This document shows, in pieces, positions 2-36,541 of a stretch of DNA of 36,541 nucleotides (position 1 is its first letter; every line of letters begins with the position of its first letter). Under the pieces are notes generated by a model. It was not told the DNA's origin. It ran no database searches and worked only from the letters and a program-made list of their open reading frames with translations. The translations under genes and the position numbers were made by a program. This DNA comes from a virus (lineage: Duplodnaviria > Heunggongvirae > Uroviricota > Caudoviricetes), in the IMG/VR virus record IMGVR_UViG_648276647_000007. The stretch is one strand, 5' to 3'.

Positions 2-2248
2 GCCATTACTGATAGTGATGTATCGACAGCTGATTCGTCTTTTACACTGGATGGAGATTCGTCGCCGACGATCTCTGCTGATAGCCAATCCACTTATCCG
101 ATAGTATTAAGCCTGAAAGATAGTAACGGTAAGGCATTAACCGGACTGGCTGATGACATTGAAATGTCAGTGGAATTTACAGCAGATAGCAATAGTGCTC
201 GACAGCGTGAAACGGTAACTGCTCCGTCATTAGGCGCGGTAGAGGAAATCTCTGCTGGTGTATATCGCTCTGTTCTGGCTGCTGGTTCGCAGGCTGGTAC
301 GGTACGTGTAACTGCAAAAGTTCAGGGAAAAACATTTACTCTCAGTATTAAGCAAACAGCAGCAACAGAACCTGATTCTGAGGTCAGTGCTGTTTTAACC
401 GCTGCACCAGCAGAACAGGTAGTTGGTTACAATATCAATCTACAACTGGCAGTGAAGGATTCACAAGGAAATGCAATCACTGGTGATAACACTCTGAGCT
501 TTTATGCTCTTAACCAGGCAGAAGGAGTCGAGTTTGGGACTGTAACGGAAAAAGACGGTGTCTATAGCGCGACAGTAACTTCAAAACGAGCTGGTAAGAT
601 TACTATCGGTGTTAAATCTGATAGTCATGATTTCTCAGGTGTTAAGAAAGAAATCACCTTTATTGAGGACCGGCAGCAGGTTACATTCTCTCAGTTTGAA
701 GCCAGCCAAAATAATGCATTGGCTGATGGAAAACAGAGAAATATGGTAACTGTAAGCCTTGCGGACCGTTTCGGCAATGTTGTTCCTGGTTATGCTGTCA
801 CATTGTCTTTACCAGCAGGGATAACTCAAGTTGGTGGTGAACATGCTGTTTCAACTGACGAAAATGGTAATGCTATTTTTGCGTTAATAAGCTCCACTCC
901 GGGGTCTTACGTGATTACAGCTCATGCTGGTTCTCAGATGTCTACTGAGTTAACAGTGACCTTTGCATCAAATATGACCGGAGCTTCACTGTCACTGACG
1001 CCTGAAAGCAGTAGTTTAATTTCCAATATTCCTGCTAATGGTAAGGATGCAGCGGTATTAGATGTGCAGCTGACAAATACGAATGCGTCGGTCAATGGGC
1101 AAAAGATTCAGCTCATCACCTCATCTGAAGGATTATCTGTACCAACAAATATCGTGACTGATTCAACAGGGCATGTTTCTGTTCCGCTTACAACGGTGAA
1201 AGCTGGTGAGTACACGGTGACTGCACGGGTGACTGACGGTTCCCATAGCGTGGAATCTGGCAGCGTTAAGTTAACTTTTGTGCCCGATGTTGCTTCTGCA
1301 GAACTGAATATGAGTGTATCAAAACAGGAGATTGTGGCCGATGGCAGTGAAAACGCAACAGTAAACATTCAGTTGGTTGATGCGAATAACAATGCGTTTA
1401 CAGGCGAGGTGGATTTAACGATTACACCATCGACGGGAGCATCATTGACCAGTAGTAATCTGCAACTGGATGCTCATGGACAGGCAACAACGCAGTTCAC
1501 TGCATCGAAATCAGGCCAGTACACAATTCAGGCCGAGTATGTTCTGGATGGGAAACGCATAACCGCAAGCCAGAATATTGATGCCGTGACGGATGTGAAG
1601 GGGGCTGTGTTGGAGATCACATCATCTGCATCTTCGGCTGTAGTGAGCGATACCAACAATCTGGTATTTACGTTACTGTTGAAAAGTAAGTCAGGCGAAG
1701 CATTAAGTGGTCGAGCATTGAATGTTAAGACATCTGGGCCGTCTAAATATGGTGCGTTGGTGGTTGATAAAACCACAGTAACGACTGATGAGAACGGTCA
1801 GGCTACGGTAAGCGTACATGGTCGAACGGTTGGTTCGTATAAATTAACGGCGACCTTAAACGAACTTGGCAGTGATGTTAGCGCGGTGAAATCATTCTCC
1901 CTGTACGCTGATGACGCAAATGGAGTATTGACTCTAACAAAAGATCCTGGTTATGAGACAAACGATGGATCTCCAGTAGGTATTTATGCTCGATTTGTCG
2001 ATCATTTTGGAAACCCATTATCTGGTACGGTTGAGTTTTCTGCTGGTAGTGAAGATAGTCCAGACTCTCAACGGGTCAAAATGGAGCCTGCTACAGTAAC
2101 GTTACACTGGACAGGTAATGCAGCTTCGGAATTCAGCACCTATGAAAGTGGTTATCACTGGATTAAGGCCAAAATAACGAATAGCAAAAATACATATGAG
2201 AAAACAATAAGGACTTATGTTGTAAAACTACCTGAAAAGGATAGTTAA
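2..2248 (+). CDS. Invasin/intimin-like adhesin with repeated bacterial Ig-like (Big_1-type) modules; 5'-partial (frame is open from base 2)
   Basis: Reading frame is open from the window edge to the stop at 2246-2248. The protein is built of repeated ~90-100 aa T/S/V-rich modules with recurring motifs (e.g. VTA..G.Y.VTA, ADG...ATV...L.DANGN), typical of inverse-autotransporter passenger domains. Family assignment is from motif recall only. Confidence 0.6.
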   Translation, partial: AITDSDVSTADSSFTLDGDSSPTISADSQSTYPIVLSLKDSNGKALTGLADDIEMSVEFTADSNSARQRETVTAPSLGAVEEISAGVYRSVLAAGSQAGTVRVTAKVQGKTFTLSIKQTAATEPDSEVSAVLTAAPAEQVVGYNINLQLAVKDSQGNAITGDNTLSFYALNQAEGVEFGTVTEKDGVYSATVTSKRAGKITIGVKSDSHDFSGVKKEITFIEDRQQVTFSQFEASQNNALADGKQRNMVTVSLADRFGNVVPGYAVTLSLPAGITQVGGEHAVSTDENGNAIFALISSTPGSYVITAHAGSQMSTELTVTFASNMTGASLSLTPESSSLISNIPANGKDAAVLDVQLTNTNASVNGQKIQLITSSEGLSVPTNIVTDSTGHVSVPLTTVKAGEYTVTARVTDGSHSVESGSVKLTFVPDVASAELNMSVSKQEIVADGSENATVNIQLVDANNNAFTGEVDLTITPSTGASLTSSNLQLDAHGQATTQFTASKSGQYTIQAEYVLDGKRITASQNIDAVTDVKGAVLEITSSASSAVVSDTNNLVFTLLLKSKSGEALSGRALNVKTSGPSKYGALVVDKTTVTTDENGQATVSVHGRTVGSYKLTATLNELGSDVSAVKSFSLYADDANGVLTLTKDPGYETNDGSPVGIYARFVDHFGNPLSGTVEFSAGSEDSPDSQRVKMEPATVTLHWTGNAASEFSTYESGYHWIKAKITNSKNTYEKTIRTYVVKLPEKDS

Positions 2249-2258
2249 CAAAATTGAA

Positions 2259-2287
2259 TGGGGAGGGCTTAGCCCTCCCTCTTTTTA
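2259..2287. terminator. GC-rich hairpin (gggagggc-tta-gccctccc) with T-tract, between convergent genes; probable bidirectional intrinsic terminator
   Basis: Perfect 8-bp inverted repeat at 2261-2279 followed by ctttttac; lies between the adhesin stop (2248) and the esterase stop (2285). Confidence 0.6.
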
Positions 2288-3328
2288 CAGGTTAGCGTTT
2301 GGGTTTTGTTGTTGGGGAGCTGTTTTTATAGGCGCTCCCAGGTTTTTAGTAAACCACTCAACGACTCTGTTTATAATAATTGGCTGATACCATGTCTTAT
2401 CGCCATGCTCGGCCCCTTCTACCAGCACGTACTCAGCGTTATCACCGTTCTTCTTCAACATCCTGAATAGTTTGGCGCTTTGCTCAGGTGAAACCAGAGT
2501 GTCTTTGCTACCATGCATAATAAGAAATGGGGGTTTTACTCCTTTCATATGTCCGATTGGACTGGCGTTTAGCGCTTTTTCTTTTGACGCTGTGATGGGG
2601 GCTCCCGCAAAATTTCTGAATGCAGGGCCATTGATCATTAAGGCTTCGGTTACGGCAGGAGAGCGATGAACCTCCTGCACTGATTCAGGGAACCCCTCGC
2701 CAATATTCAACAAGTCAGAAATCCCATAAAGTGTGGCAACTGCCTGAACATCTGAGGATTGCTGAAGAAAGTCACCTTTATCAAAGGTTTTGTCACCATT
2801 TGTAGTTCCCATCATCTGGGCAAGCCATCCACCGGCAGAGTCACCCAGAACTCCGATTCTTTGAGGATCAATCCCATAATTGCTGGCATGCTCTCTCAGG
2901 TAACGTATTGCAGCTTTTCCATCCTCAACTGGTGCTGGAAATGTATCAGGAATTGTTCTGTATTCTACAGCGGCCACAACAAAACCAGCTTCTGCCAGAG
3001 CCATTCTCATTTCAATAAATTTGTCATGTTCAGAAGACATGAATCCGCCGCCGGGATAATAAATAATGGCTGGTTTTAAATCATTTGTTCGCGGGACAAG
3101 AACTGACATGTGAAGCTGTCTGACAGAACGAGTTCCTTTTATCTGGGAATAAACAACATCACCAATGAGATCGACCTGGTTTCTGGTCGGTGAAACACTA
3201 ATGATATCTGCACCCGGGGTGTAACCAGGAAGATTAGTCTGGACAGGTGTTGCACAACTCCCGACCGACATGGCCATTGACATACCATACAATAGTGTTG
3301 CAGATGATAATATCTTGTTAATTTTCAT
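2285..3328 (-). CDS. Lipoprotein alpha/beta-hydrolase (esterase/lipase family)
   Basis: 347 aa ORF. N-terminal signal peptide with lipobox (MSVGSC), oxyanion-hole-like YYPGGGF motif and nucleophile-elbow GDSAGG motif of hormone-sensitive-lipase-type esterases. Confidence 0.7.
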   Translation of the reverse strand: MKINKILSSATLLYGMSMAMSVGSCATPVQTNLPGYTPGADIISVSPTRNQVDLIGDVVYSQIKGTRSVRQLHMSVLVPRTNDLKPAIIYYPGGGFMSSEHDKFIEMRMALAEAGFVVAAVEYRTIPDTFPAPVEDGKAAIRYLREHASNYGIDPQRIGVLGDSAGGWLAQMMGTTNGDKTFDKGDFLQQSSDVQAVATLYGISDLLNIGEGFPESVQEVHRSPAVTEALMINGPAFRNFAGAPITASKEKALNASPIGHMKGVKPPFLIMHGSKDTLVSPEQSAKLFRMLKKNGDNAEYVLVEGAEHGDKTWYQPIIINRVVEWFTKNLGAPIKTAPQQQNPNANL

Positions 3329-19441: not shown

Positions 19442-19857
19442 GTTTTGCCCTGAAACTGGCGCGTGAGATGGGGCGACCCGACTGGCGTGCCATGCTTGCC
19501 GGGATGTCATCCACGGAGTATGCCGACTGGCACCGCTTTTACAGTACCCATTATTTTCATGATGTTCTGCTGGATATGCACTTTTCCGGGCTGACGTACA
19601 CCGTGCTCAGCCTGTTTTTCAGCGATCCGGATATGCATCCGCTGGATTTCAGTCTGCTGAACCGGCGCGAGGCTGACGAAGAGCCTGAAGATGATGTGCT
19701 GATGCAGAAAGCGGCAGGGCTTGCCGGAGGTGTCCGCTTTGGCCCGGACGGGAATGAAGTTATCCCCGCTTCCCCGGATGTGGCGGACATGACGGAGGAT
19801 GACGTAATGCTGATGACAGTATCAGAAGGGATCGCAGGAGGAGTCCGGTATGGCTGA
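19423..19857 (+). CDS. T: T portion of the G-T frameshift fusion tail assembly chaperone
   Basis: -1 frame ORF of 144 aa directly following the slippery site; no independent ATG or RBS, consistent with expression only as a G-T fusion. Confidence 0.8.
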   Translation: MFDGELSFALKLAREMGRPDWRAMLAGMSSTEYADWHRFYSTHYFHDVLLDMHFSGLTYTVLSLFFSDPDMHPLDFSLLNRREADEEPEDDVLMQKAAGLAGGVRFGPDGNEVIPASPDVADMTEDDVMLMTVSEGIAGGVRYG

Positions 19858-22410
19858 ACCGGTAGGCGATCTGGTCGTTGATTTGAGTCTGGATGCGGCC
19901 AGATTTGACGAGCAGATGGCCAGAGTCAGGCGTCATTTTTCCGGTACGGAAAGTGATGCGAAAAAAACAGCGGCAGTCGTTGAACAGTCGCTGAGCCGAC
20001 AGGCGCTGGCTGCACAGAAAGCGGGGATTTCCGTCGGGCAGTATAAAGCCGCCATGCGTATGCTGCCTGCACAGTTCACCGACGTGGCCACGCAGCTTGC
20101 AGGCGGGCAAAGTCCGTGGCTGATCCTGCTGCAACAGGGGGGGCAGGTGAAGGACTCCTTCGGCGGGATGATCCCCATGTTCAGGGGGCTTGCCGGTGCG
20201 ATCACCCTGCCGATGGTGGGGGCCACCTCGCTGGCGGTGGCGACCGGTGCGCTGGCGTATGCCTGGTATCAGGGCAACTCAACCCTGTCCGATTTCAACA
20301 AAACGCTGGTCCTTTCCGGCAATCAGGCGGGTCTGACGGCAGATCGTATGCTGGTCCTGTCCAGAGCCGGGCAGGCGGCAGGGCTGACGTTTAACCAGAC
20401 CAGCGAGTCACTCAGCGCACTGGTTAAGGCGGGGGTAAGCGGTGAGGCTCAGATTGCGTCCATCAGCCAGAGTGTGGCGCGTTTCTCCTCTGCATCCGGC
20501 GTGGAGGTGGACAAGGTCGCTGAAGCCTTCGGGAAGCTGACCACAGACCCGACGTCGGGGCTGACGGCGATGGCACGCCAGTTCCATAACGTGACGGCGG
20601 AGCAGATTGCGTATGTTGCTCAGTTGCAGCGTTCCGGCGATGAAGCCGGGGCATTGCAGGCGGCGAACGAGGCCGCAACGAAAGGGTTTGATGACCAGAC
20701 CCGCCGCCTGAAAGAGAACATGGGCACGCTGGAGACCTGGGCAGACAGGACTGCGCGGGCATTCAAATCCATGTGGGATGCGTGCTGGATATTGGTCGTC
20801 CTGATACCGCGCAGGAGATGCTGATTAAGGCAGAGGCTGCGTTTAAGAAAGCAGACGACATCTGGAATCTGCGCAAGGATGATTATTTTGTTAACGATGA
20901 AGCGCGGGCGCGTTACTGGGATGATCGTGAAAAGGCCCGTCTTGCGCTTGAAGCCGCCCGAAAGAAGGCTGAACAGCAGAGTCAACAGGACAAAAATGCG
21001 CAGCAGCAGAGCGATACCGAAGCGTCACGGCTGAAATATACCGAAGAGGCGCAGAAGGCTTACGAACGGCTGCAGACGCCGCTGGAGAAATATGCCGCCC
21101 GTCAGGAAGAACTGAATAAGGCCCTGAAAGACGGAAAAATCCTGCAGGCAGATTACAACACGCTGATGGCGGCAGCGAAAAAGGACTATGAAACGACACT
21201 GAAAAAGCCGAAGCAGTCCGGCGTGAAGGTGTCTGCGGGCGATCGTCAGGAAGACAGTGCTCATGCTGCCCTGCTGACGCTTCAGGCTGAACTCCGGACG
21301 CTGGAGAAGCATGCCGGAGCAAATGAGAAAATCAGCCAGCAGCGCCGGGATTTGTGGAAGGCGGAGAGTCAGTTCGCGGTACTGGAGGAGGCGGCGCAAC
21401 GTCGCCAGCTGTCTGTACAGGAGAAATCCCTGCTGGCGCATAAAGATGAGACGCTGGAGTACAAACGCCAGCTGGCTGCACTTGGCGACAAGGTTACGTA
21501 TCAGGAGCGCCTGAACGCGCTGGCGCAGCAGGCGGATAAATTCGCACAGCAGCAACGGGCAAAACGGGCCGCCATTGATGCGAAAAGCCGGGGGCTGACT
21601 GACCGGCAGGCAGAACGGGAAGCCACGGAACAGCGCCTGAAGGAACAGTATGGCGATAATCCGCTGGCGCTGAATAACGTCATGTCAGAGCAGAAAAAGA
21701 CCTGGGCGGCTGAAGACCAGCTTCGCGGGAACTGGATGGCAGGCCTGAAGTCCGGCTGGAGTGAGTGGGAAGAGAGCGCCACGGACAGTATGTCGCAGGT
21801 AAAAAGTGCAGCCACGCAGACCTTTGATGGTATTGCACAGAATATGGCGGCGATGCTGACCGGCAGTGAGCAGAACTGGCGCAGCTTCACCCGTTCCGTG
21901 CTGTCCATGATGACAGAAATTCTGCTTAAGCAGGCAATGGTGGGGATTGTCGGGAGTATCGGCAGCGCCATTGGCGGGGCTGTTGGTGGCGGCGCATCCG
22001 CGTCAGGCGGTACAGCCATTCAGGCCGCTGCGGCGAAATTCCATTTTGCAACCGGAGGATTTACGGGAACCGGCGGCAAATATGAGCCAGCGGGGATTGT
22101 TCACCGTGGTGAGTTTGTCTTCACGAAGGAGGCAACCAGCCGGATTGGCGTGGGGAATCTTTACCGGCTGATGCGCGGCTATGCCACCGGCGGTTATGTC
22201 GGTACACCGGGCAGCATGGCAGACAGCCGGTCGCAGGCGTCCGGGACGTTTGAGCAGAATAACCATGTGGTGATTAACAACGACGGCACGAACGGGCAGA
22301 TAGGTCCGGCTGCTCTGAAGGCGGTGTATGACATGGCCCGCAAGGGTGCCCGTGATGAAATTCAGACACAGATGCGTGATGGTGGCCTGTTCTCCGGAGG
22401 TGGACGATGA
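19850..22410 (+). pseudogene. H: Tail tape-measure protein H, interrupted by a 1-nt frameshift near 20781-20784
   Basis: Two ORFs (19850-20824 and 20773-22410, different frames) together span the length and position of lambda H (853 aa). The upstream frame reads ...FKSMWDA then CWILVVLIPRRRC-stop; the other frame continues GCVLDIGRPDTAQEML..., so restoring one base after gatgcg would rejoin them. Confidence 0.8.
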
Positions 22411-22736
22411 AGACCTTCCGCTGGAAAGTGAAACCCGGTATGGATGTGGCTTCGGTCCCTTCTGTAAGAAAGGTGCGCTTTGGTGATGGCTATTCTCAGC
22501 GAGCGCCTGCCGGGCTGAATGCCAACCTGAAAACGTACAGCGTGACGCTTTCTGTCCCCCGTGAGGAGGCCACGGTACTGGAGTCGTTTCTGGAAGAGCA
22601 CGGGGGCTGGAAATCCTTTCTGTGGACGCCGCCTTATGAGTGGCGGCAGATAAAGGTGACCTGCGCAAAATGGTCGTCGCGGGTCAGTATGCTGCGTGTT
22701 GAGTTCAGCGCAGAGTTTGAACAGGTGGTGAACTGA
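22407..22736 (+). CDS. M: Tail tip protein M
   Basis: 109 aa; lambda gpM. Confidence 0.9.
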   Translation: MKTFRWKVKPGMDVASVPSVRKVRFGDGYSQRAPAGLNANLKTYSVTLSVPREEATVLESFLEEHGGWKSFLWTPPYEWRQIKVTCAKWSSRVSMLRVEFSAEFEQVVN

Positions 22737-28277: not shown

Positions 28278-28877
28278 ATGCGTAAATTATGTGCTGTTAT
28301 TCTGTCCGCAGTAGTCTTGCTGGTTGCCGCTGGTACGCCAGCGAGCGCAGCAGAGCATCAGTCCACACTAAGCGCCGGGTATCTTCAGACCCATACTGAT
28401 ATGCCAGGCAGTGATGACCTGAAGGGCATTAACGTGAAATACCGTTATGAATTTACGGACACGCTGGGGCTGGTGACGTCATTCAGTTATGCCAATGCCA
28501 AAGATGAGCAAAAAACGCATTACAGCGATACCCGCTGGCATGAAGATTCCGTGCGTAACCGCTGGTTCAGCATGATGGCGGGGCCATCAGTACGCGTGAA
28601 TGAATGGTTCAGTGCTTATGCGATGGCGGGTATGGCTTACAGCCGTGTGTCGACCTTCTCCGGGGATTATCTCCGCGTAACTGACAACAAGGGGAAAACG
28701 CACGATGTGCTGACCGGAAGTGATGACGGTCGCCACAGCAACACGTCTCTGGCGTGGGGGGCTGGCGTGCAGTTTAACCCGACCGAATCCGTGGCCATTG
28801 ACCTTGCTTATGAAGGTTCCGGCAGTGGTGACTGGCGCACTGACGGTTTCATCGTGGGTGCCGGTTATAAATTCTGA
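28278..28877 (+). CDS. lom: Lom outer-membrane protein (Ail/Lom/OmpX family)
   Basis: 199 aa with signal peptide and C-terminal ...GSGDWRTDGFIVGAGYKF beta-barrel terminus, as in lambda Lom. Confidence 0.85.
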   Translation: MRKLCAVILSAVVLLVAAGTPASAAEHQSTLSAGYLQTHTDMPGSDDLKGINVKYRYEFTDTLGLVTSFSYANAKDEQKTHYSDTRWHEDSVRNRWFSMMAGPSVRVNEWFSAYAMAGMAYSRVSTFSGDYLRVTDNKGKTHDVLTGSDDGRHSNTSLAWGAGVQFNPTESVAIDLAYEGSGSGDWRTDGFIVGAGYKF

Positions 28878-28903: not shown

Positions 28904-28931
28904 AGCCCGCCGGTTCAGGCGGGCTTTTTTG
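28904..28931 (+). terminator. Intrinsic terminator after lom (agcccgcc-ggttc-aggcgggct + T6)
   Basis: 8-9 bp GC-rich stem followed by tttttt. Confidence 0.7.
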
Positions 28932-28935
28932 TGGA

Positions 28936-30693
28936 GTGGATATGGTAGCAGTAAAAATCTCAGGTGTGCTGAAAGATGGTGCGGGAAAACCAATACAGAA
29001 CTGCACTATTCAACTGAAGGCAAAGCGTAACAGCACCACGGTACTGGTGAACACGGTGGCATCTGAAAATCCTGATGAAGCCGGGCGTTACAGTATGGAT
29101 GTTGAGTATGGCCAGTACAGCGTCACCCTGCTGGTTGAAGGTTTTCCGCCTTCACATGCCGGGACCATTACCGTCTATGAAGGTTCCAGACCAGGTACGC
29201 TGAATGATTTTCTCGGTGCCATGACGGAAGATGATGTCATGCCGGAGGCATTGCGTCGTTTTGAGGAAATGGTGGAAGAAGCGGCACGCAACGCCGAAGC
29301 CGCCTCTCAGAGCGCAGCGGCGGCAAAGAAATCCGAAACTGCATCGGCAGCAAGCCAGACAGCAGCTAAAGCAAGTGAAGACGCAGCCAGAGAGTATGCA
29401 AGTCAGGCAGCAGAGCCGTATAAATATGTCTTACAGCCACTGCCTGATGTGTGGATACCGTTTAACGATTCACTGGATATGATTACGGGTTTTTCGCCAT
29501 CTTATAAAAAGATAGTTATTGGTGACGATGAAATAACAATGCCAGGCGACAAGATTGTTAAGTTTAAACGTGCTTCAACAGCAACGTATATTAATAAGTC
29601 CGGCCAACTCAAGCTTGCTGAAGTTGACGAACCGCGATTTGAGCGCGATGGCTTATTGATTGAAGGACAGAGGACAAATTATCTGAGGAACTCAAATAAA
29701 CCAGACTCATGGACTGTTCATTCCGCACTGAATAAAACATTTGGCACTGATAAACAGGGGTTCAATTATGCCACGGTGACACCCACGGAAAGTATAGTGG
29801 GAACAACAGGTGGCTATACTGTGCATGGTGTGGTTGCAGCAGACAGATTCCCGCTGGCAAGTGGTGAATGTTTCACTTTTTCGTGCCGGGTTAAAGGCGC
29901 TAAAGCACGATGCAGGTTAAGAGTTTCAGTTATTATTGGTGGAACAGATACCTTCTCTGCTGACTCTTATCTTGATCTGGATACCCGGATCGCAACAGTA
30001 AGCGGTAATACATCCCTTATAACAGCCAAAGCTGAACAACAGGGCGAGTGGACCTACTATGAGGCCACTTATACAGCTAATACGGACATTGATACCGTTA
30101 ACTGTGCTTTTTATATGACAAATAAAATAAGTAATGAGACATTCTATGATGACTCAACATTAACCATGACGACGCCGCAAATTGAACTGGGCAATACGGC
30201 ATCGTCATTTATTGTAACTACAATGCCAACAACACGCGCAAGTGATGTAGTTACTATCCCATCGCAGAATAACCTGTCAACACGGCCTTTTACGGTATTG
30301 TGCGAAGTAAGCAGGAACTGGAGTACACCGCCCAATGTTGCGCCAAGGATATTTGATGTTGGAGGGCACAGTATTGATGATAATTATTTATCGCTGGGGT
30401 TTGTTGCAACAGGAAAGATAAGCGCCAACGTAGGAATGGTTCAGCCACAAATTGCCTCAGATGGAGAAAGGTTCATTGTGGGTGTGAGAGCTAAATCTGA
30501 TTTATCAGTAAATGCAATATGCAATGGTAATTATACAACAAACCTTAATGGTAAAATATTTGGAGTTACAGCAACATCGTACCGGTTTGGTGGGCAGACC
30601 GCAGCAGGAACGCGTCATTTGTTTGGACACATCAGAAATTTCAGAGTCTGGTTTAAAGAATTAAATGACAGGCAAATCAAGGAGGCAGTATGA
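28936..30693 (+). CDS. stf: Side tail fibre protein with lambda Stf-like N-terminus and divergent C-terminal receptor-binding domain (possibly LamG/concanavalin-like)
   Basis: First ~150 aa (MAVKISGVLKDGAGKPIQNCTIQLKAKRNSTT...SMDVEYGQYSV...) resemble lambda Stf; the rest lacks the long Ala/Ser-rich shaft and ends in a G.IRNFRVW...L.DRQI-like motif. Confidence 0.7.
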   Translation: MDMVAVKISGVLKDGAGKPIQNCTIQLKAKRNSTTVLVNTVASENPDEAGRYSMDVEYGQYSVTLLVEGFPPSHAGTITVYEGSRPGTLNDFLGAMTEDDVMPEALRRFEEMVEEAARNAEAASQSAAAAKKSETASAASQTAAKASEDAAREYASQAAEPYKYVLQPLPDVWIPFNDSLDMITGFSPSYKKIVIGDDEITMPGDKIVKFKRASTATYINKSGQLKLAEVDEPRFERDGLLIEGQRTNYLRNSNKPDSWTVHSALNKTFGTDKQGFNYATVTPTESIVGTTGGYTVHGVVAADRFPLASGECFTFSCRVKGAKARCRLRVSVIIGGTDTFSADSYLDLDTRIATVSGNTSLITAKAEQQGEWTYYEATYTANTDIDTVNCAFYMTNKISNETFYDDSTLTMTTPQIELGNTASSFIVTTMPTTRASDVVTIPSQNNLSTRPFTVLCEVSRNWSTPPNVAPRIFDVGGHSIDDNYLSLGFVATGKISANVGMVQPQIASDGERFIVGVRAKSDLSVNAICNGNYTTNLNGKIFGVTATSYRFGGQTAAGTRHLFGHIRNFRVWFKELNDRQIKEAV

Positions 30694-30968
30694 AAGATTT
30701 AACTTTGAAATTTCCTGGTAACAGAGAGTTTAAATCCTTCCTGTCATCTCTTGACTGGGAGGAGGATGAAGACCTCCAGAATAAACTGTTAGTCGATGAA
30801 ATTGGTTTCACCTACACAGAAACAGGGGTAACAGAAGAGGGAGAACCTGTCTGTGTCCGGAATGACGGTTATTTTGTCAACATTCGCATTCTTGATGACT
30901 TGTTTGATGTTTCTGTATTCTCTGATTATGTCGTGGAGCTGGAAACACCGCTTCGGGAATGGAGCTGA
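30690..30968 (+). CDS. Hypothetical acidic protein (92 aa), translationally coupled to the tail fibre gene
   Basis: ATGA overlap with the stf stop; sits where a tail fibre assembly gene would be expected but is smaller than typical Tfa proteins. Confidence 0.45.
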   Translation: MKDLTLKFPGNREFKSFLSSLDWEEDEDLQNKLLVDEIGFTYTETGVTEEGEPVCVRNDGYFVNIRILDDLFDVSVFSDYVVELETPLREWS

Positions 30969-30980
30969 AAGGAGGAAATA

Positions 30981-31274
30981 ATGGATATAAGCCCCTTACT
31001 TCATGCACTTTGTGCTGTGGCTGCGCAGATACTGGTTGGTCTTTTTACCGGAAACTGGGCTTACGGAGCGATAGCCGGTTGTACGTTCTTCATTGCGCGT
31101 GAACATACCCAGGCAGAATATCGCTGGATTGAAATGTTCGGGCATGGCAAGCGAATGAATATGCCGTGGTGGGGCGGTTTTGATCCGCGAGCTTGGGATG
31201 TGGCAAGCCTGATGGATTTTGCTGTGCCGGTGGTGGCGTGTCTGCTGGTCTGGCTGTTGGTTAATCGTGGGTGA
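30981..31274 (+). CDS. Hypothetical small membrane protein (97 aa, two predicted TM helices)
   Basis: Strong RBS (gaaaggaggaaataATG); hydrophobic N- and C-terminal segments flanking a W/R-rich loop. Confidence 0.45.
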   Translation: MDISPLLHALCAVAAQILVGLFTGNWAYGAIAGCTFFIAREHTQAEYRWIEMFGHGKRMNMPWWGGFDPRAWDVASLMDFAVPVVACLLVWLLVNRG

Positions 31275-31365
31275 AAAAAGGTGAGCTGTATATGCAACGG
31301 AGGAAGAAACCCCGTTGCTGGAAGCCAGGAAAAAGTATCGGGTGTTGCTGTCCTCGGATGTTGTG

Positions 31366-32223
31366 CTAATTGGGTGATAACAGATCCTGTGTATGGGAGT
31401 TTCCCTTTTTGCGTGCGTTGATGCTGGTAACGGCAAACGTCATGATGAACAAAACCGCGAATAAGACGACAATCGTCGGAGCTGGTGCGCTGTCGATAAA
31501 AAAGGACAACCAGACACCAGTCATTGACACTATTACCGATATGCCAGTCGCCAGTAGGAGCGCAATATGAAAGCGTTGTGTCAGGAGTACCGCAATGGCG
31601 CCAGGCGCAATGAGCAGAGAAATGGAGAGAATGATACCTACCGCTTTCAGCGTCGCCACAATGGTCAGAGAGACCATGCACAGCAGCCCATAATGCAGCC
31701 ATCTCGTATGCAAACCGCTTACCTGCGCCTGTTGATAATCAAAGCTGAACAGCAAAAAATCCCGCCATTTTACGCTAATAACAAGTGTAACCAGCCCGGC
31801 AATAATCATCGTCTGGATTATATCGCCGATGGTTATCCCGAGCATGTCGCCGAAAAGAATATGGTCAAGATGTACGTCTGGTTTGACTGCAATATACAAG
31901 ATCAGACCTGCGGCAAACATGCCAGAAAAAACAATCCCCATCACTGTATCTTGCTTGATTCGGCTGTTGTCTTTCAGGTATCCCGTCGCCACCGCACAGA
32001 ATACTCCGGCGACGAATGCCCCTGTAGCCAAAGGTAACCCCAGAATCCAGGCAAGCACGATGCCAGGAAAAACCGCATGACTCATCGCGTCACCCATCAG
32101 TGCCCAACCTTTCAGGACCAGAAAGACCGACAGCAGCGCACAGGGTATGGAAACTACCAGTGAAATCAGCAGTGCGTGACTCATAAAGGTGAACTGCAGT
32201 GGCTCCAGTAATAATGCCATCAT
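31366..32223 (-). CDS. sitD: Mn/Fe ABC transporter permease SitD (ABC-3 family)
   Basis: 285 aa polytopic membrane protein, last gene of a four-gene minus-strand operon with overlapping start/stop codons; paralogous to the adjacent permease. Confidence 0.8.
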   Translation of the reverse strand: MMALLLEPLQFTFMSHALLISLVVSIPCALLSVFLVLKGWALMGDAMSHAVFPGIVLAWILGLPLATGAFVAGVFCAVATGYLKDNSRIKQDTVMGIVFSGMFAAGLILYIAVKPDVHLDHILFGDMLGITIGDIIQTMIIAGLVTLVISVKWRDFLLFSFDYQQAQVSGLHTRWLHYGLLCMVSLTIVATLKAVGIILSISLLIAPGAIAVLLTQRFHIALLLATGISVIVSMTGVWLSFFIDSAPAPTIVVLFAVLFIMTFAVTSINARKKGNSHTQDLLSPN

Positions 32224-33077
32224 GAGCGATCCTCCAGCGCCTTATGCGCACGCCGACGATTTGCCAAAAGCCCATGGGTGGGCGCAAAGACAAATGCTAA
32301 AAGAAACAGCAGTGTCTGCGCCACCACGATGATTCCACCTGTCGCGCCGTCCAGAAAGTAACTGACCCACGCGCCGAGGAAACTGGTTACACTGCCAATA
32401 GTTACAGCAATCATGAGCAGGCGGGGAAAACGATCGGTTAACAACCATGCTGTTGCACCGGGAGTCACCACCAGACAGATCACCAGAAAGGCACCAACCG
32501 TTTGCAGCGCCGCAACGGTCGAAACCGACAGCAGGGTGAAGAAGAGGAGTTTTAATCTGCCCGGATGCAATCCAATAGCACGGGCGTGATTCTCGTCGAA
32601 AAAGGTCACCATAAGATCTTTCCATTTGAAAAAAAGCACGATGATCGAGAGAATGCCAATGATAGTGAGTTGCAGGATATCCGCCGGATCGATTGCCAGA
32701 ATATTGCCCAGGACGATGGTCTGAATGTTCACAGATGTCGGGTTCAATGACACCATAAACAGCCCCAGGCCAAAAAAGGACGAGAAGATCAGACCGATGA
32801 TGGCATCTTCTTTTAAGCGGGTGCGTTGGTTAAGAAACAGCATGCTGCCCGCAGCCAGTCCGCCGGAAAAGAAGGCTCCCAGAGAAAACGGAAGCCCCAG
32901 CATATATGCCCCCGCAACACCCGGGACAATAGAGTGCGACAACGCATCGCCAATCAGCGACCAGCCTTTTAGCATCAGATAGCATGACAGGAAAGCGCAG
33001 AGACCGCCGACCATCGCCGAGACCCACATCGCATTGAGCATATATTCATAGCTGAAGGGTTCCAGTAGCACGTTCAT
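32220..33077 (-). CDS. sitC: Mn/Fe ABC transporter permease SitC (ABC-3 family)
   Basis: 285 aa polytopic membrane protein; operon position. Confidence 0.8.
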
Positions 33078-33901
33078 CTTTCTTCCCTCTGCACCGCTGA
33101 CGGTCGATGAGCCACAAAAGGGCGTTCATCGTCAGTAATAATGCTTTCTTCCGAGCCGTTAAGTGTGACATGGCGCAGTACGCCGCTAAAAGCCAGCTCT
33201 AGGTTCTCGGCTGTAAAAGTGGTGTCTGTCGGCCCGCTTGCCAGGACGGTGCCTTTGACCATGACCGTATAATCGCAAAATGTCGTGACGGATCCGAGAT
33301 TGTGTGTTGAGACAAGCATCGTTTTGCCTTCCGCGCGTAACTCCCTCAACAGGCTGATGATTTTGGCTTCGGTTTTCACATCAACGCCAGTAAAAGGTTC
33401 ATCCAGCAGGATCACATCACCCTGCTGTGCAATCGCTCTCGCCAGAAAGACGCGTTTCTTTTGTCCACCGGAAAGCTCGCCGATTTGTCGATGGCGAAAA
33501 TTCACCATATCGACACGTTCCAGCGCATCGGTGACAATTTGACGATCCCTCTTTTTGGCGATACGCAACATACCCATATGCCCATAGCGGCCCATCATCA
33601 CCACATCTTCCACCAGTACAGGAAATGACCAGTCAACATCTTCTGACTGAGGGACGTAGGCAACCAGGTTTTTCTGTAACGCCTGTCGCGTGGGAATACC
33701 CAGAACAGATATCTTTCCGCTGGTCAGACGCACAAATCCCATAATCGCTTTAAACAACGTCGATTTTCCGGAACCGTTTACCCCAACCAGAGCGGCAATA
33801 GATCCACTTGGTACTGTGAAGGATGCATCGCGCAGTGCTGTGTGCCCGTTACGCCAGGTGACAGTAACATCATTAACGACAATGCCTGCAGATTGCATCA
33901 T
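33074..33901 (-). CDS. sitB: Mn/Fe ABC transporter ATP-binding protein SitB
   Basis: 275 aa; Walker [13 protein letters not shown] signature LSGGQ, Walker B ILLDEP. Confidence 0.85.
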
Positions 33902-34815
33902 TATTTCTCCCTTTTCCCAGCTTTAATTCCCTGTACCAGCGTACTGGTAGTAACCTTAAGAAGGTCGATATACGTCGGTACCGGGCCGTTTTCTGTGCTC
34001 AGGGAATCGACATAGAGCACACCGCCGTAGTGTGCGCCGGTTTCACGCGCAACCTGACGCGCTGGTTTATCGGAAATCGTACTCTCGCTAAAGACTGCCG
34101 GGATATGATTTTTCTTAACTATATCAACAACCTTACGTACCTGCTGCGGTGTTCCTTGTTGATCGGCATTAATCGGCCACAGATAAAGCTCTTTTAGCCC
34201 CAAATCGCGTGCGAGATAAGAAAAAGCCCCTTCACTGGTGACCATCCATCGCTGATTCTCAGGGAGTTCCGTAATCTGCTTACGCAGGGGGGCAAGGATT
34301 TGGGTAATCTTGGCTTTATAAGTATCGGCATTGCGTTGGTAGGTTTGTGCATTTGCCGGATCGTATTTTATCAACGCATCACGAATATTATCGACGTAAA
34401 TCAGAGCATTATCTGGCGACATCCATGCATGGGGGTTAGGTTTGCCCTCATAGGGTCCTTCGGTGATCCCTACAGGCGTCACACCCGAAGAGACAATTAC
34501 TTCTGGAACCCCATTGAGATGCTGGTAAAAGCGTTGGAACCACAATTCCAGATTCATACCATTGGCAAGAATCAGTTGTGCCCCCTGCGCACGTTTAATA
34601 TCGCCAGGGGTAGGCTGATACTCATGAATTTCTGCACCAGGCTTGGTTATGGATGAGACTTCTGCAGCATCTCCCGCCACGTTTTTGGCCATATCCGCGA
34701 TGATGGTAAATGTTGTAATGACCTTGAATTTTTCAGTTGCACTTGCCTGAAATGCGATCGAGCAGGTGAGTGCGAGCCCCCCCAAGAGCATGGTTACTTT
34801 TTTTATCGAGTGCAT
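33901..34815 (-). CDS. sitA: Periplasmic Mn/Fe-binding protein SitA (TroA/cluster-9 substrate-binding protein)
   Basis: 304 aa with signal peptide; first gene of the operon. Sit/Yfe/Mnt family by motif recall; exact orthologue name unverified. Confidence 0.8.
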
Positions 34816-34909: not shown

Positions 34910-35513
34910 CAGCTTTGAGGCCCAAAACAGGGATTAGGTTGTTTCCTGCTGGCGACGCGTTATTGAGGAAAAAAGTAAGGCAGCTAGTAGGCTTTGAAAT
35001 AACGTTTTGCGGTTGGCTGATGCAATTTCGAGAGTGCATGTATTGAATGATTTCTAGCCGTTACTGATTTTCGTATTTTTTGTATGGGAGGATTTGCACC
35101 TCCCCCCACCGAGCCTCCATGACTTTACTCCACTGTCTCTAGGGCTGCTGTGTGCCAGGAGCGGAAGCAGGGGGGCCAGAGACTCCTTAAAAGTTGATAG
35201 CTCGTTTTGCAGGGAGACTTACACGGTAAGCGTTATTCCGAAGAGCTTAAAATTGAAGCAGTCAAACGGGTTGTTGAGCGTGTTTATGCGCTGCCATCTG
35301 ATTAATCGACGGAAGCAGTTCCGTTTGGTCTATGATGCAGTTGTCCGGCAGGCGCTCTGTGACGCAAAAGAACGATAGGAGTAGCATTGAAGTGAACGAG
35401 GTTATGCTTGTCTTATATTATCCTCTATTTTAAAAACATCAGCTGGTTGTGTAAGAGTTTTTATTGTTTTATCTTGTTGACTTTGCTTTTATGAAAACAG
35501 AGTGATTGATACA

Positions 35514-36041
35514 ATGAAAACCTTAAGTGGGAAAGAGTTTAGGAAATTATTTAATCGTTATGAGACAGGATTCTATCTAAGTGAGTTTGAATACTTAAAG
35601 GACTTTGATCCTTTGTTTCCTGAATGCGTAGGGAAAGAATTAAAGTTGGGTTATAAACGAAAAGTTGATGTATGGTGCGAAGAGGATGCTGCGCTATATG
35701 CAGAATTTATAGCTACAAAAGAAAGGCTGAAAAGAGGCCGGTTAATCCTAAAAATAAACCAAGTGTGGTCGCGTGTATATCCTGCTTATATTTATGCAAT
35801 TGAAGAAAGAATAAATGTCAGGGCAAAGGGGAGAGAGTCATTTAAGTATGAAACTGTGCAAGAAAAACAATGTAAACTTTCCATAATGTTAGATGGTCTG
35901 AAAGACCTTGAATGTGAAATAGCTATGATTTCAAGTGAGTTTGAAATTGAAAAACACTCTATGCACTATTTTTATATGATTTTTGATATTGAACGCTATA
36001 TAAATGACTGCAGTTACTTTGTTTTTTCTGGGCTTTGTTGA
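35514..36041 (+). CDS. Hypothetical protein in an AT-rich island; 3' end apparently replaced by the IS end
   Basis: ORF 35502-36041 (first ATG at 35514). Region is visibly AT-rich relative to the rest of the window. The last codons and the TGA stop (36039-36041) lie inside the IS terminal repeat starting at 36031. Confidence 0.4.
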   Translation: MKTLSGKEFRKLFNRYETGFYLSEFEYLKDFDPLFPECVGKELKLGYKRKVDVWCEEDAALYAEFIATKERLKRGRLILKINQVWSRVYPAYIYAIEERINVRAKGRESFKYETVQEKQCKLSIMLDGLKDLECEIAMISSEFEIEKHSMHYFYMIFDIERYINDCSYFVFSGLC

Positions 36042-36541
36042 ATAAATCGAACTTTTGCTGAGTTGAAGGATCAGATCACGCATCTTCCCGACAACGCAGA
36101 CCATTCCGTGGCAAAGCAAAAGTTCAAAATCACCAACTGGTCCACCTACAACAAAGCCCTCATCAACCGTGGCTCCATAACTTTCTGGCTGGACGATGAA
36201 GCTATTCAGGCCTGGTATGAGTCGGCAACGCCTTCATCACGGGGAAGACCTCAGCGCTATTCTGATCTCGCCATCACCACCGTTCTGGTCATTAAACGCG
36301 TGTTCAGGCTGACCCTGCGGGCTGCACAGGGTTTTATTGATTCCATTTTTACACTGATGAATGTTCCGTTGCGCTGCCCGGATTACACCAGTGTCAGTAA
36401 GCGCGCAAAGTCGGTTAATGTCAGTTTCAAAACGTTCACCCGGGGTGAAATCGCGCATCTGGTGATTGATTCCACCGGGCTGAAGGTCTCTGGTGAAGGC
36501 GAATGGAAAGTCAAAAAACACGGACAAAGAACGCCGTCGTA
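36031..36541 (+). mobile_element. IS903-group (IS5 family) insertion sequence, left end and 5' part; continues beyond the window
   Basis: Terminal sequence GGCTTTGTTGAATAAATCGAACTTTTGCTGAGTTGAAGGATCAGATCACGCATCTTCCCGACAACGCAGACC... matches the IS903/Tn903 end as I remember it. Confidence 0.75.
36107..36541 (+). CDS. IS903-group transposase, N-terminal 145 codons (3'-partial at window edge)
   Basis: Frame open from GTG 36107 to the window end, translating to VAKQKFKITNWSTYNKALINRGSITFWLDDEAIQAWYESATPSSRGRPQRYSDLAITTVLVIKRVFRLTLRAAQGF...; absent from the ORF track because no stop is reached. Confidence 0.75.

Follow-up and report, generated by a model that had tools for sequence, protein, structure and literature searches.

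Background

Side tail fibres set the first contact of lambda-like phages with their hosts and are deliberately swapped to retarget phage-based delivery vectors. The Ur-lambda virion bears four trimeric side fibres, which are attached via a dodecameric collar of Stf N-termini and make adsorption 10-30 fold faster, yet are non-essential (PMC12617516). In phage 21 (OL657228), the stf gene (CPT_21_22) is followed by two small genes (CPT_21_23 and CPT_21_24) and by a convergent sitDCBA operon. The present study concerns a locus of this kind, a side tail fibre gene and the two small genes behind it (orf92 and orf97, after the lengths of their products), in a stretch of 36,541 nucleotides from a virus of the class Caudoviricetes (IMG/VR record IMGVR_UViG_648276647_000007). 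The whole stretch is hereafter referred to as the window, and the three genes lie on its plus strand.

The locus is a phage 21-type stf cassette and is not new, being an arrangement common in E. coli. On balance, the explanation judged probable for the cassette as a whole is that the orf92 product is a partner of the fibre, while that of orf97 has a separate role in the cell envelope. About one in five complete E. coli genomes contains the fibre type, as do T5-like and Nonagvirus model phages, and transplanting it would probably require the 92-residue protein gene as well. The orf97 product is a very conserved and very common prophage membrane protein; if it does block phage entry or alter the envelope, the phage susceptibility of many clinical E. 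coli would be affected. Neither point alters the current understanding of such modules, and the remaining interest lies in two constrained families of small proteins, one tied to a fibre type and the other very widespread.

Organisation and origin of the cassette

The three open reading frames proposed in the initial annotation are all present and intact. The fibre gene (28942-30693, plus strand) encodes a phage 21-type Stf of 583 residues with a short shaft and belongs to phrog_1419 (E 1e-272). It is followed by orf92 (30690-30968, plus strand; phrog_1361, E 2e-39) and orf97 (30981-31274, plus strand; phrog_1443, E 2e-58). The same three families in the same order, with the fibre stop codon overlapping the start of the 92-residue protein gene, were found in phage 21 and in 80 of 80 viral loci. 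The small genes, which had been regarded as not assignable to any known family, thus belong to two, though both are annotated as 'unknown function'. The start of the fibre gene was placed by the open reading frame finder at a GTG at 28936 (28936-30693); the ATG at 28942 is the better start, GGAG at 28933-28936 precedes it at the proper distance, and PGAP (the NCBI annotation pipeline) also begins the gene there in an identical genome.

DNA similarity to lambda extends from the 3' end of lom to position 29294 of the window, corresponding to about residue 117 of the fibre, and then stops (blastn, lambda 19458-19999), with an identity of ~83% over the 3' end of lom and the 5' end of stf. On the right, between orf97 and the end of sitD, lies a remnant of 58 bp from the end of lambda tfa (31293-31350, plus strand; 93-95% identity to lambda tfa nucleotides 22437-22494, at the 3' end of that gene), which forms the second recombination joint and encodes, in frame, EETPLLEARKKYRVLL as against EETSLLEAWKKYRVLL in lambda Tfa. 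Apart from this remnant, no tfa gene was found in the cassette; a related genome has a partial tfa annotated at the same place, which is longer (L003, 6368-6487). The left joint at 29294 and the tfa remnant therefore delimit an exchanged segment of ~2.0 kb that comprises the shaft, the distal fibre, orf92 and orf97. In lambda, the corresponding place is taken by tfa and the distal 2.4 kb of stf, and the cassette has thus replaced the distal part of a lambda-type stf together with nearly all of tfa. The two joints support the proposal that tfa was lost in a host-range swap; the module is not unusual and has the arrangement of phage 21.

In phage 21, the gene order and the families are the same as in the window, Stf combines a lambda-type N-terminus with the same distal architecture, the 92-residue protein gene overlaps the stf stop codon, and the 97-residue membrane protein is 100% identical to the orf97 product. 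Phage 21 Stf is 686 residues long with a shaft ~100 residues longer and is 46% identical overall to the window fibre. Its distal domains are ~45% identical to those of the window fibre and hence represent a different receptor-binding allele, and phage 21, unlike the window, is without lom between J and stf. PhiR47_2 has the same layout as the window cassette. The likeness to lambda (Ur-lambda) Stf covers the ~115 homologous N-terminal residues, the position after J and lom and the presumed non-essential role in accelerating adsorption. The window fibre is, however, not a full-length orthologue of lambda Stf, since homology ends at about residue 117 and the distal families differ: lambda Stf has a T4 gp37-like tip that binds OmpC and is dependent on Tfa, whereas the window fibre is lectin-like and is accompanied by an unrelated 92-residue protein.

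Among 5426 complete E. coli genomes, 1127 contain the orf92-orf97 pair at a coverage of at least 80% and 1903 show at least some match; the pair was also found in 55 phage records.

Domain architecture of the fibre

The lambda Stf-type N-terminal tail-docking (collar) domain is encoded by 28942-29294 (plus strand), as judged from Pfam, PDB and blastn comparisons. Residues 5-133 of the fibre match PF08400 (E 3e-67, 225 bits against a cut-off of 26.6), and residues 3-95 match the N-terminus of lambda Stf in the Ur-lambda virion (PDB 9e7m chain Ta, E 3.5e-49). An Ala-rich shaft of only ~45 residues, presumed to be a coiled coil, follows (29275-29409, plus strand) and was delineated by alignment with the fibres of phage 21, PhiR47_2, L068 and L058. 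The remaining 427 residues are, by their sequence, unrelated to lambda Stf.

The proximal part of this distal region (29410-30270, plus strand) consists of a conserved junction (PLPDVWIPFNDSL...EGQRTN) and a beta-sandwich domain homologous to the head-spike fibre of the Rhodobacter gene transfer agent RcGTA. Residues 241-435 score 66.1 bits with NCBIfam NF048003 (GTA_spike_fiber, 'head spike fiber'; cut-off 36). A profile built from eleven distal domains retrieves from PDB the RcGTA head-spike fibre Rcc01080 (GhsB; 6tb9_F3) with an E-value of 1.8e-28 and, less strongly, further fibre and baseplate proteins of phages. The homology to Rcc01080 (PDB 6tb9) spans ~235 distal residues of the window fibre. 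Rcc01080 has 325 residues and is attached to the capsid spikes by its first ten, whereas the domain in the window is a module of a tail fibre that is anchored differently and has a LamG-like domain in addition. The ligand of Rcc01080 is capsular polysaccharide, and the fold predicted for the protein has been described as lectin-like (PMC10218006).

The C-terminal domain (30241-30690, plus strand), which ends in ...RHLFGHIRNFRVWFKELNDRQIKEAV, appears to be of LamG/concanavalin-like type. Residues 436-582 give a weak match to PF13385 Laminin_G_3 (E 0.0016; 19 bits, below the Pfam cut-off of 27.6) that spans positions 4-151 of the 151 in the model. A distant homologue of the fibre has a precomputed weak match to Laminin_G_3, and the C-terminal LamG-type motif is kept in distant fibre homologues. 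The profiles thus suggest a two-domain distal fibre with a beta-sandwich of the head-spike type and a LamG-like end, in keeping with the initial annotation of a chimera in which a lambda Stf-like N-terminus (PF08400, 9e7m) is joined to a non-lambda distal part (NF048003). By analogy with Rcc01080, the distal domains are presumed to bind surface glycans (O-antigen, capsule or lipopolysaccharide). The T5-like phage IrisVonRoten has the same fibre type (A4 profile, E 1e-181), and it is the only BASEL phage of the Markadamsvirinae (a T5-like subfamily) that infects K-12 with restored O16 antigen (PMC8594841).

The coupled 92-residue protein

The orf92 product is an acidic alpha/beta protein of 92 residues (isoelectric point 4.05; 22 D/E against 8 K/R). 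Its gene, which has the ribosome-binding site AAGGAGG, is translationally coupled to the fibre gene through an ATGA overlap (GTATGA). The acidic character and the coupling were both correctly described at the outset. AlphaFold2 predicts a small alpha/beta fold (predicted local distance difference test, pLDDT, 94.4), and a ratio of nonsynonymous to synonymous substitutions (dN/dS) of ~0.3 indicates purifying selection. A word-indexed search found orf92 only in Escherichia and Shigella, while an exhaustive profile search returned 77 representative clusters, including proteins of 85-125 residues with ~30% identity. The pattern of the family is M[KR]DL.L[KR]F ... D.IG ... GYHVN[LI]R ... P.TP.RVWA.

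The association of orf92 with the fibre type was consistent. In 80 of 80 IMG/VR loci of the E. coli clades, the gene begins where a fibre gene of this type stops, and a second clade with ~30% identity, gathered with a sub-alignment since the full orf92 alignment was too diverged to serve as a seed, is likewise located at the fibre stop codon in 80 of 80 viral loci. In metagenomic contigs, the protein upstream of the orf92 homologue ends in HIRN[FL]RIWHRALTDAQIKGL[KR], with an ATGA or a TAATG overlap, and prophages of Comamonas and Chelativorans carry an orf92-like gene at the stop codon of the same fibre type. The association extends to virulent phages, namely the Nonagvirus JenP1 (gp23/gp24) and the T5-like IrisVonRoten (bas32_0022/0023). 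The N-terminal anchors of the orf92-linked fibres differ (lambda type, T5 Ltf type and others), while the distal module and orf92 are common to all of them. A lack of conserved co-occurrence had been named beforehand as what would speak against a link between the small genes and this fibre type; for orf92, co-occurrence was found throughout both clades and in the distant phages.

Sequence and fold comparisons revealed no likeness of orf92 to Tfa or to a chaperone of solved structure, and PDB sequence searches gave no match for either small protein. Scans of Pfam, NCBIfam and PADLOC with both small proteins, singly and as family alignments, yielded nothing usable, and a search of BFVD with orf92 returned uncharacterized phage proteins only. 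The most likely role of the orf92 product is that of an assembly or accessory protein dedicated to the fibre, with no relationship to Tfa. It is read as a folding or assembly partner because fibres of this type are without the S74 intramolecular chaperone and orf92 stands in the position of tfa; a dedicated chaperone is plausible. The likeness to Tfa/Mu gpU, T4 gp38/gp57A and the S74 chaperones is one of genomic logic only, a small acidic protein being coupled to the fibre gene as with tfa.

A different role for orf92 is suggested by loci with a second fibre gene. In a diverged class of the E. coli cassette, a fibre gene with a C-terminal S74-type chaperone domain is located between orf92 and orf97 (L058, 5292-5996; L068, 5292-6332), and a second S74-type fibre gene also follows orf92 in JenP1 (gp25; L147, 5289-6344), in IrisVonRoten (bas32_0024; L230, 4789-6513) and in L088, so that orf92 comes to lie between the LamG-tipped fibre and the second one. 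In JenP1 (gp23-25) and IrisVonRoten (bas32_0022-0024), the first fibre has the same distal module as the window fibre (A4 profile, E ~1e-180) and is overlapped by a homologue of the 92-residue orf92 (E ~1e-35). The two phages differ from the window in their T5 Ltf and Nonagvirus anchors, in the second S74-type fibre after orf92, in having no orf97 nearby and in being virulent. A short peptide at the N-terminus, M[AV]T[SK]T[VI]IP.DI..LK, recurs in the second-fibre proteins of the lambdoid, Nonagvirus and T5-like phages and has the appearance of a shared docking motif. The orf92 product could accordingly be imagined as a connector on which a second distal subunit of a branched or two-part fibre docks, the second subunit having been lost in the window and orf92 being a leftover. 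A precedent is provided by DT57C, for which two-protein branched lateral fibres have been documented (PMC4728585, PMC10713586). However, the fibres of DT57C are of another type: the literature on its LtfA and LtfB describes fibres with S74 domains, which T5 Ltf carries as well (PMC10713586), and no small partner protein. Most orf92 loci, including the class with 85-100% identity, L091 and Comamonas, have no second fibre gene, so that an adaptor role cannot be the whole story; moreover, orf92 is intact and under purifying selection where the second fibre is absent, and the pair occurs in 1127 genomes. The connector explanation is thus considered unlikely, though it deserves to be kept in view, and a folding or assembly partner is preferred.

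Variation in shaft length

The length of the shaft is highly variable among the alleles, with fibres of 583, 673, 686 and 792-795 residues arising via in-frame changes in the repetitive region (long-allele fibre loci compared: L004, 3019-5040; L068, 2617-5004). The PhiR47_2 allele, of 673 residues, is 97.5% identical in DNA to the window fibre where the two align. As the longer alleles (673-795 residues) align with extra shaft residues, the window fibre is interpreted as an in-frame shortening in the repetitive shaft, which is ~90-210 residues shorter than in its relatives.

It could be argued that such a fibre is a decaying, non-functional gene and that the cassette is a relic in the window. 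The short-shaft form is found at full length in only three of the 5426 complete E. coli genomes, and in strain Rb-23, which carries the identical gene, PGAP labels it as two 'incomplete' pseudogene fragments. The reading frame is nonetheless unbroken: in the window, the gene has a continuous frame with a good ribosome-binding site and neither frameshift nor premature stop codon, the loss is in frame within the repetitive Ala-rich region, and nothing is missing from the docking domain, the junction or either distal domain. Two IMG/VR contigs (L009 and L019) have the same allele, and in Rb-23 no pseudogene flags are attached to the head and tail genes that precede the fibre. A relic is therefore a rather improbable explanation, and the fibre is treated here as an intact short-shaft allele.

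The 97-residue membrane protein

The orf97 product is a membrane protein of 97 residues with a highly conserved loop (REHTQAEYRW...NMPWWGGFD). Its gene has the strong ribosome-binding site (AAGGAGG) ascribed to it initially. The two transmembrane segments of the initial annotation, which also appear in the annotation of phage 21, are replaced by three helices in the AlphaFold2 model (residues 4-23, 26-53 and 74-96; pLDDT 94.5). Conservation peaks at the end of helix 2 and in the loop that follows (AREHTQAEYRWI..FG.GKR.NMPWWGGFD.R.W), and invariant polar residues are also found at the start of helix 1 (D2, H8 and Q16) and in helix 3 (D79). The C-terminal tails of the homologues are often basic which, in conjunction with the positive-inside rule, suggests a cytoplasmic C-terminus and a periplasmic location for the conserved loop. 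A resemblance of the REHTQAEYRW motif to the DUF202 motif was considered and dropped as no Pfam match was obtained.

The family comprises 577 clusters with homologues in Alpha-, Beta-, Gamma- and Deltaproteobacteria; identity is still ~60% in Comamonas and Aeromonas, and dN/dS is 0.1-0.25. Its genomic contexts are mixed. In the lambdoid phages of E. coli, orf97 always accompanies this fibre cassette, while homologues in Leclercia, Acidovorax and others follow unrelated tail fibre or spike genes. In the Uetakevirus phiv142-3, an epsilon15-like podophage of E. coli, a homologue stands between the tail fibre gene and the lysis genes (L148, 3483-3782), in the place occupied in epsilon15 by the O-antigen polymerase and the alpha-polymerase inhibitor (L149, 9272-10663). 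Stand-alone chromosomal copies are found in Leclercia and Silvania as well as in Aeromonas.

In several Aeromonas spp. (L006, 6001-6309; L100, L102, L106 and L107), the lone chromosomal orf97 lies beside a pirin gene with no phage genes nearby, and in L006 two lipid A acyltransferase genes are located within 3 kb of it. In Comamonas nitrativorans and Pigmentiphaga humi (L124, 3947-4300; L127), the homologue is flanked on one side by the Mtd-like target gene (phrog_2889) of a diversity-generating retroelement and on the other by avd-like and reverse-transcriptase genes.

Small envelope exclusion genes located right after the receptor-binding gene are represented by cor in phi80, N15 and HK022 and by llp in T5. 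The orf97 product differs from this set in being a polytopic inner-membrane protein and not a lipoprotein, and in not covarying with the receptor-binding protein. With epsilon15 gp21/gp22 it has only the position in common, that of a small envelope protein gene right after the receptor-binding gene of a temperate phage. A relationship to epsilon15 gp22 (the alpha-polymerase inhibitor) or gp23 (a membrane protein) was considered and rejected, as neither showed similarity or could be aligned. A fold search with the orf97 model gave no informative match. Given the mixed contexts, a self-contained membrane function of temperate phages fits better than a role in fibre assembly, and the best guess, by analogy and with modest confidence, is superinfection exclusion or envelope modification.

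The exclusion or receptor-masking role suggested for the membrane protein in the initial annotation is a guess. Alternatively, orf97 could belong to the fibre system, perhaps as a factor in the membrane that assists the assembly or maturation of lectin-type fibres, the three genes forming one unit, and it is indeed a constant companion of the cassette in E. coli lambdoid phages, the trio recurring in Comamonas, in 'Pantoea sp. 18069' and, with its genes reordered, in Chelativorans. Yet homologues follow unrelated fibre or spike genes and a retroelement target gene or stand alone in the chromosomes of Aeromonas, Leclercia and Silvania, and orf97 is missing near the fibre loci of the virulent JenP1 and IrisVonRoten and from 80 of 80 loci of the second orf92 clade, all of which still have this fibre type; membership in the fibre system is thus quite improbable. 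A function in the timing of lysis (holin, antiholin or similar) is very improbable: orf97 is small with three hydrophobic helices, and in Comamonas, Acidovorax and Uetakevirus phages it immediately precedes the genes for holin, endolysin and Rz, but the lysis genes are more than 20 kb away in the window (~6.2-7.4 kb) and in phage 21, no holin family in Pfam or PHROGs matches, the conservation peak is a long polar loop, the C-terminus is not a charged tail typical of holins, and stand-alone chromosomal copies exist in several Aeromonas species.

Two database labels require caution. A contig labelled MAG: Collinsella sp. (an actinobacterium; L098) carries the E. coli cassette at 93% identity, and the contigs of 'Pantoea sp. 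18069' (L112, L117 and L126) carry prophage genes resembling those of Comamonas. Binning errors or contamination of the public assemblies appear to be behind both cases.

Proposed mechanism

By analogy with Ur-lambda, twelve copies of the fibre protein would assemble into four trimeric fibres, with their N-termini forming the collar on the tail. The lectin-like distal domains would bind a surface glycan reversibly and thereby speed up adsorption before J meets the terminal receptor. The orf92 product, made in step with the fibre owing to the ATGA coupling, most likely helps the distal domains to fold or assemble, or remains attached to them; it would then substitute for Tfa, or for the intramolecular S74 domain absent from this fibre type, while being homologous to neither. 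The weakest step concerns the orf97 product, which would be a self-contained inner-membrane protein that most likely acts on the envelope or on the entry of phages, through superinfection exclusion or lysogenic conversion, and not on fibre assembly. A more far-reaching proposition, advanced only tentatively, joins two generalisations, that orf92 represents a hitherto unrecognised and widespread class of trans-acting partners required for lectin-type (head-spike-fibre/LamG) tail fibres across lambda-like, T5-like, Nonagvirus and beta- and alphaproteobacterial phages, where it would substitute for Tfa or the S74 chaperone, and that orf97 is the founder of a pan-proteobacterial family of three-helix inner-membrane proteins, located beside the receptor-binding genes of temperate phages, that block superinfection or remodel the envelope.

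Several observations weigh against the preferred explanation. Given its rarity, the short-shaft allele, with its pseudogene labels in Rb-23, may be impaired. Among the IMG/VR loci, orf92 is 90-93% identical while the variable domains of the fibres are only 41-44% identical, which shows that receptor specificity is not tracked by orf92; any contact with the fibre would have to involve the conserved junction or the conserved C-terminal strands. Adjacency alone does not separate a chaperone from a structural partner or an adaptor. With regard to orf97, the recurrence of the trio in Comamonas and Chelativorans could reflect a functional tie to the fibre, and weak partial matches to it occur in virulent jumbo phages of Aeromonas. 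A promoter scan gave no convincing promoter for orf97, with sites no more frequent than expected by chance. The protein has no match in PADLOC or Pfam, and PADLOC gave no match for the fibre or orf92 either. Finally, no experiment on the fibre, orf92 or orf97 was found in the literature searched, which covered phage 21 stf, the ECOR phages and chimeric Stf engineering.

Prophage setting and neighbouring genes

The window is a lambda-like E. coli prophage of the DLP12 site. Its tail region is 99.9% identical to that of E. coli strain Rb-23, in which the counterpart prophage occupies a tRNA-Arg site, begins on the left with intD and has the gene order J, lom, fibre, the two small genes and sitDCBA. 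Upstream of the fibre, lom (28278-28877, plus strand; PF06316, E 2e-126; phrog_108) encodes an outer-membrane beta-barrel of the Ail/Lom type, and a terminator-like hairpin followed by a run of T (28904-28925, plus strand), recognised by consensus scan and by reading of the sequence, separates it from the ribosome-binding site of the fibre. Downstream, convergent with the cassette and in the b region of the prophage, lies the complete sitDCBA operon for an iron/manganese ABC transporter (31366-34815, minus strand), identified from the annotation of the identical genome and of phage 21. As phage 21, PhiR47_2 and many of the sequenced lambdoid phages also contain sitDCBA, it is regarded as phage cargo and not as flanking chromosome.

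The left part of the window, with NinB, RusA, Q, a LydA-type holin, Rz, an invasin-like gene and an esterase, is unlike Rb-23. In the early/nin region, 164-2248 (plus strand) encodes a protein of 694 residues with five Big_1/invasin-type Ig-like repeats, and 2285-3328, on the opposite (minus) strand, encodes an esterase of the BD-FAE/alpha-beta hydrolase type; at the corresponding position, Rb-23 has other genes instead (the ybcK recombinase and others). Beyond sitA, the region 35000-36541 of the window is low in G+C (0.39-0.41) and includes an open reading frame of 179 residues (35502-36041) with no match in Pfam. The corresponding region of Rb-23 gives way to a frameshifted integrase fragment, a tfa pseudogene, a methyltransferase gene and ompT, an arrangement also seen at the DLP12 right end.

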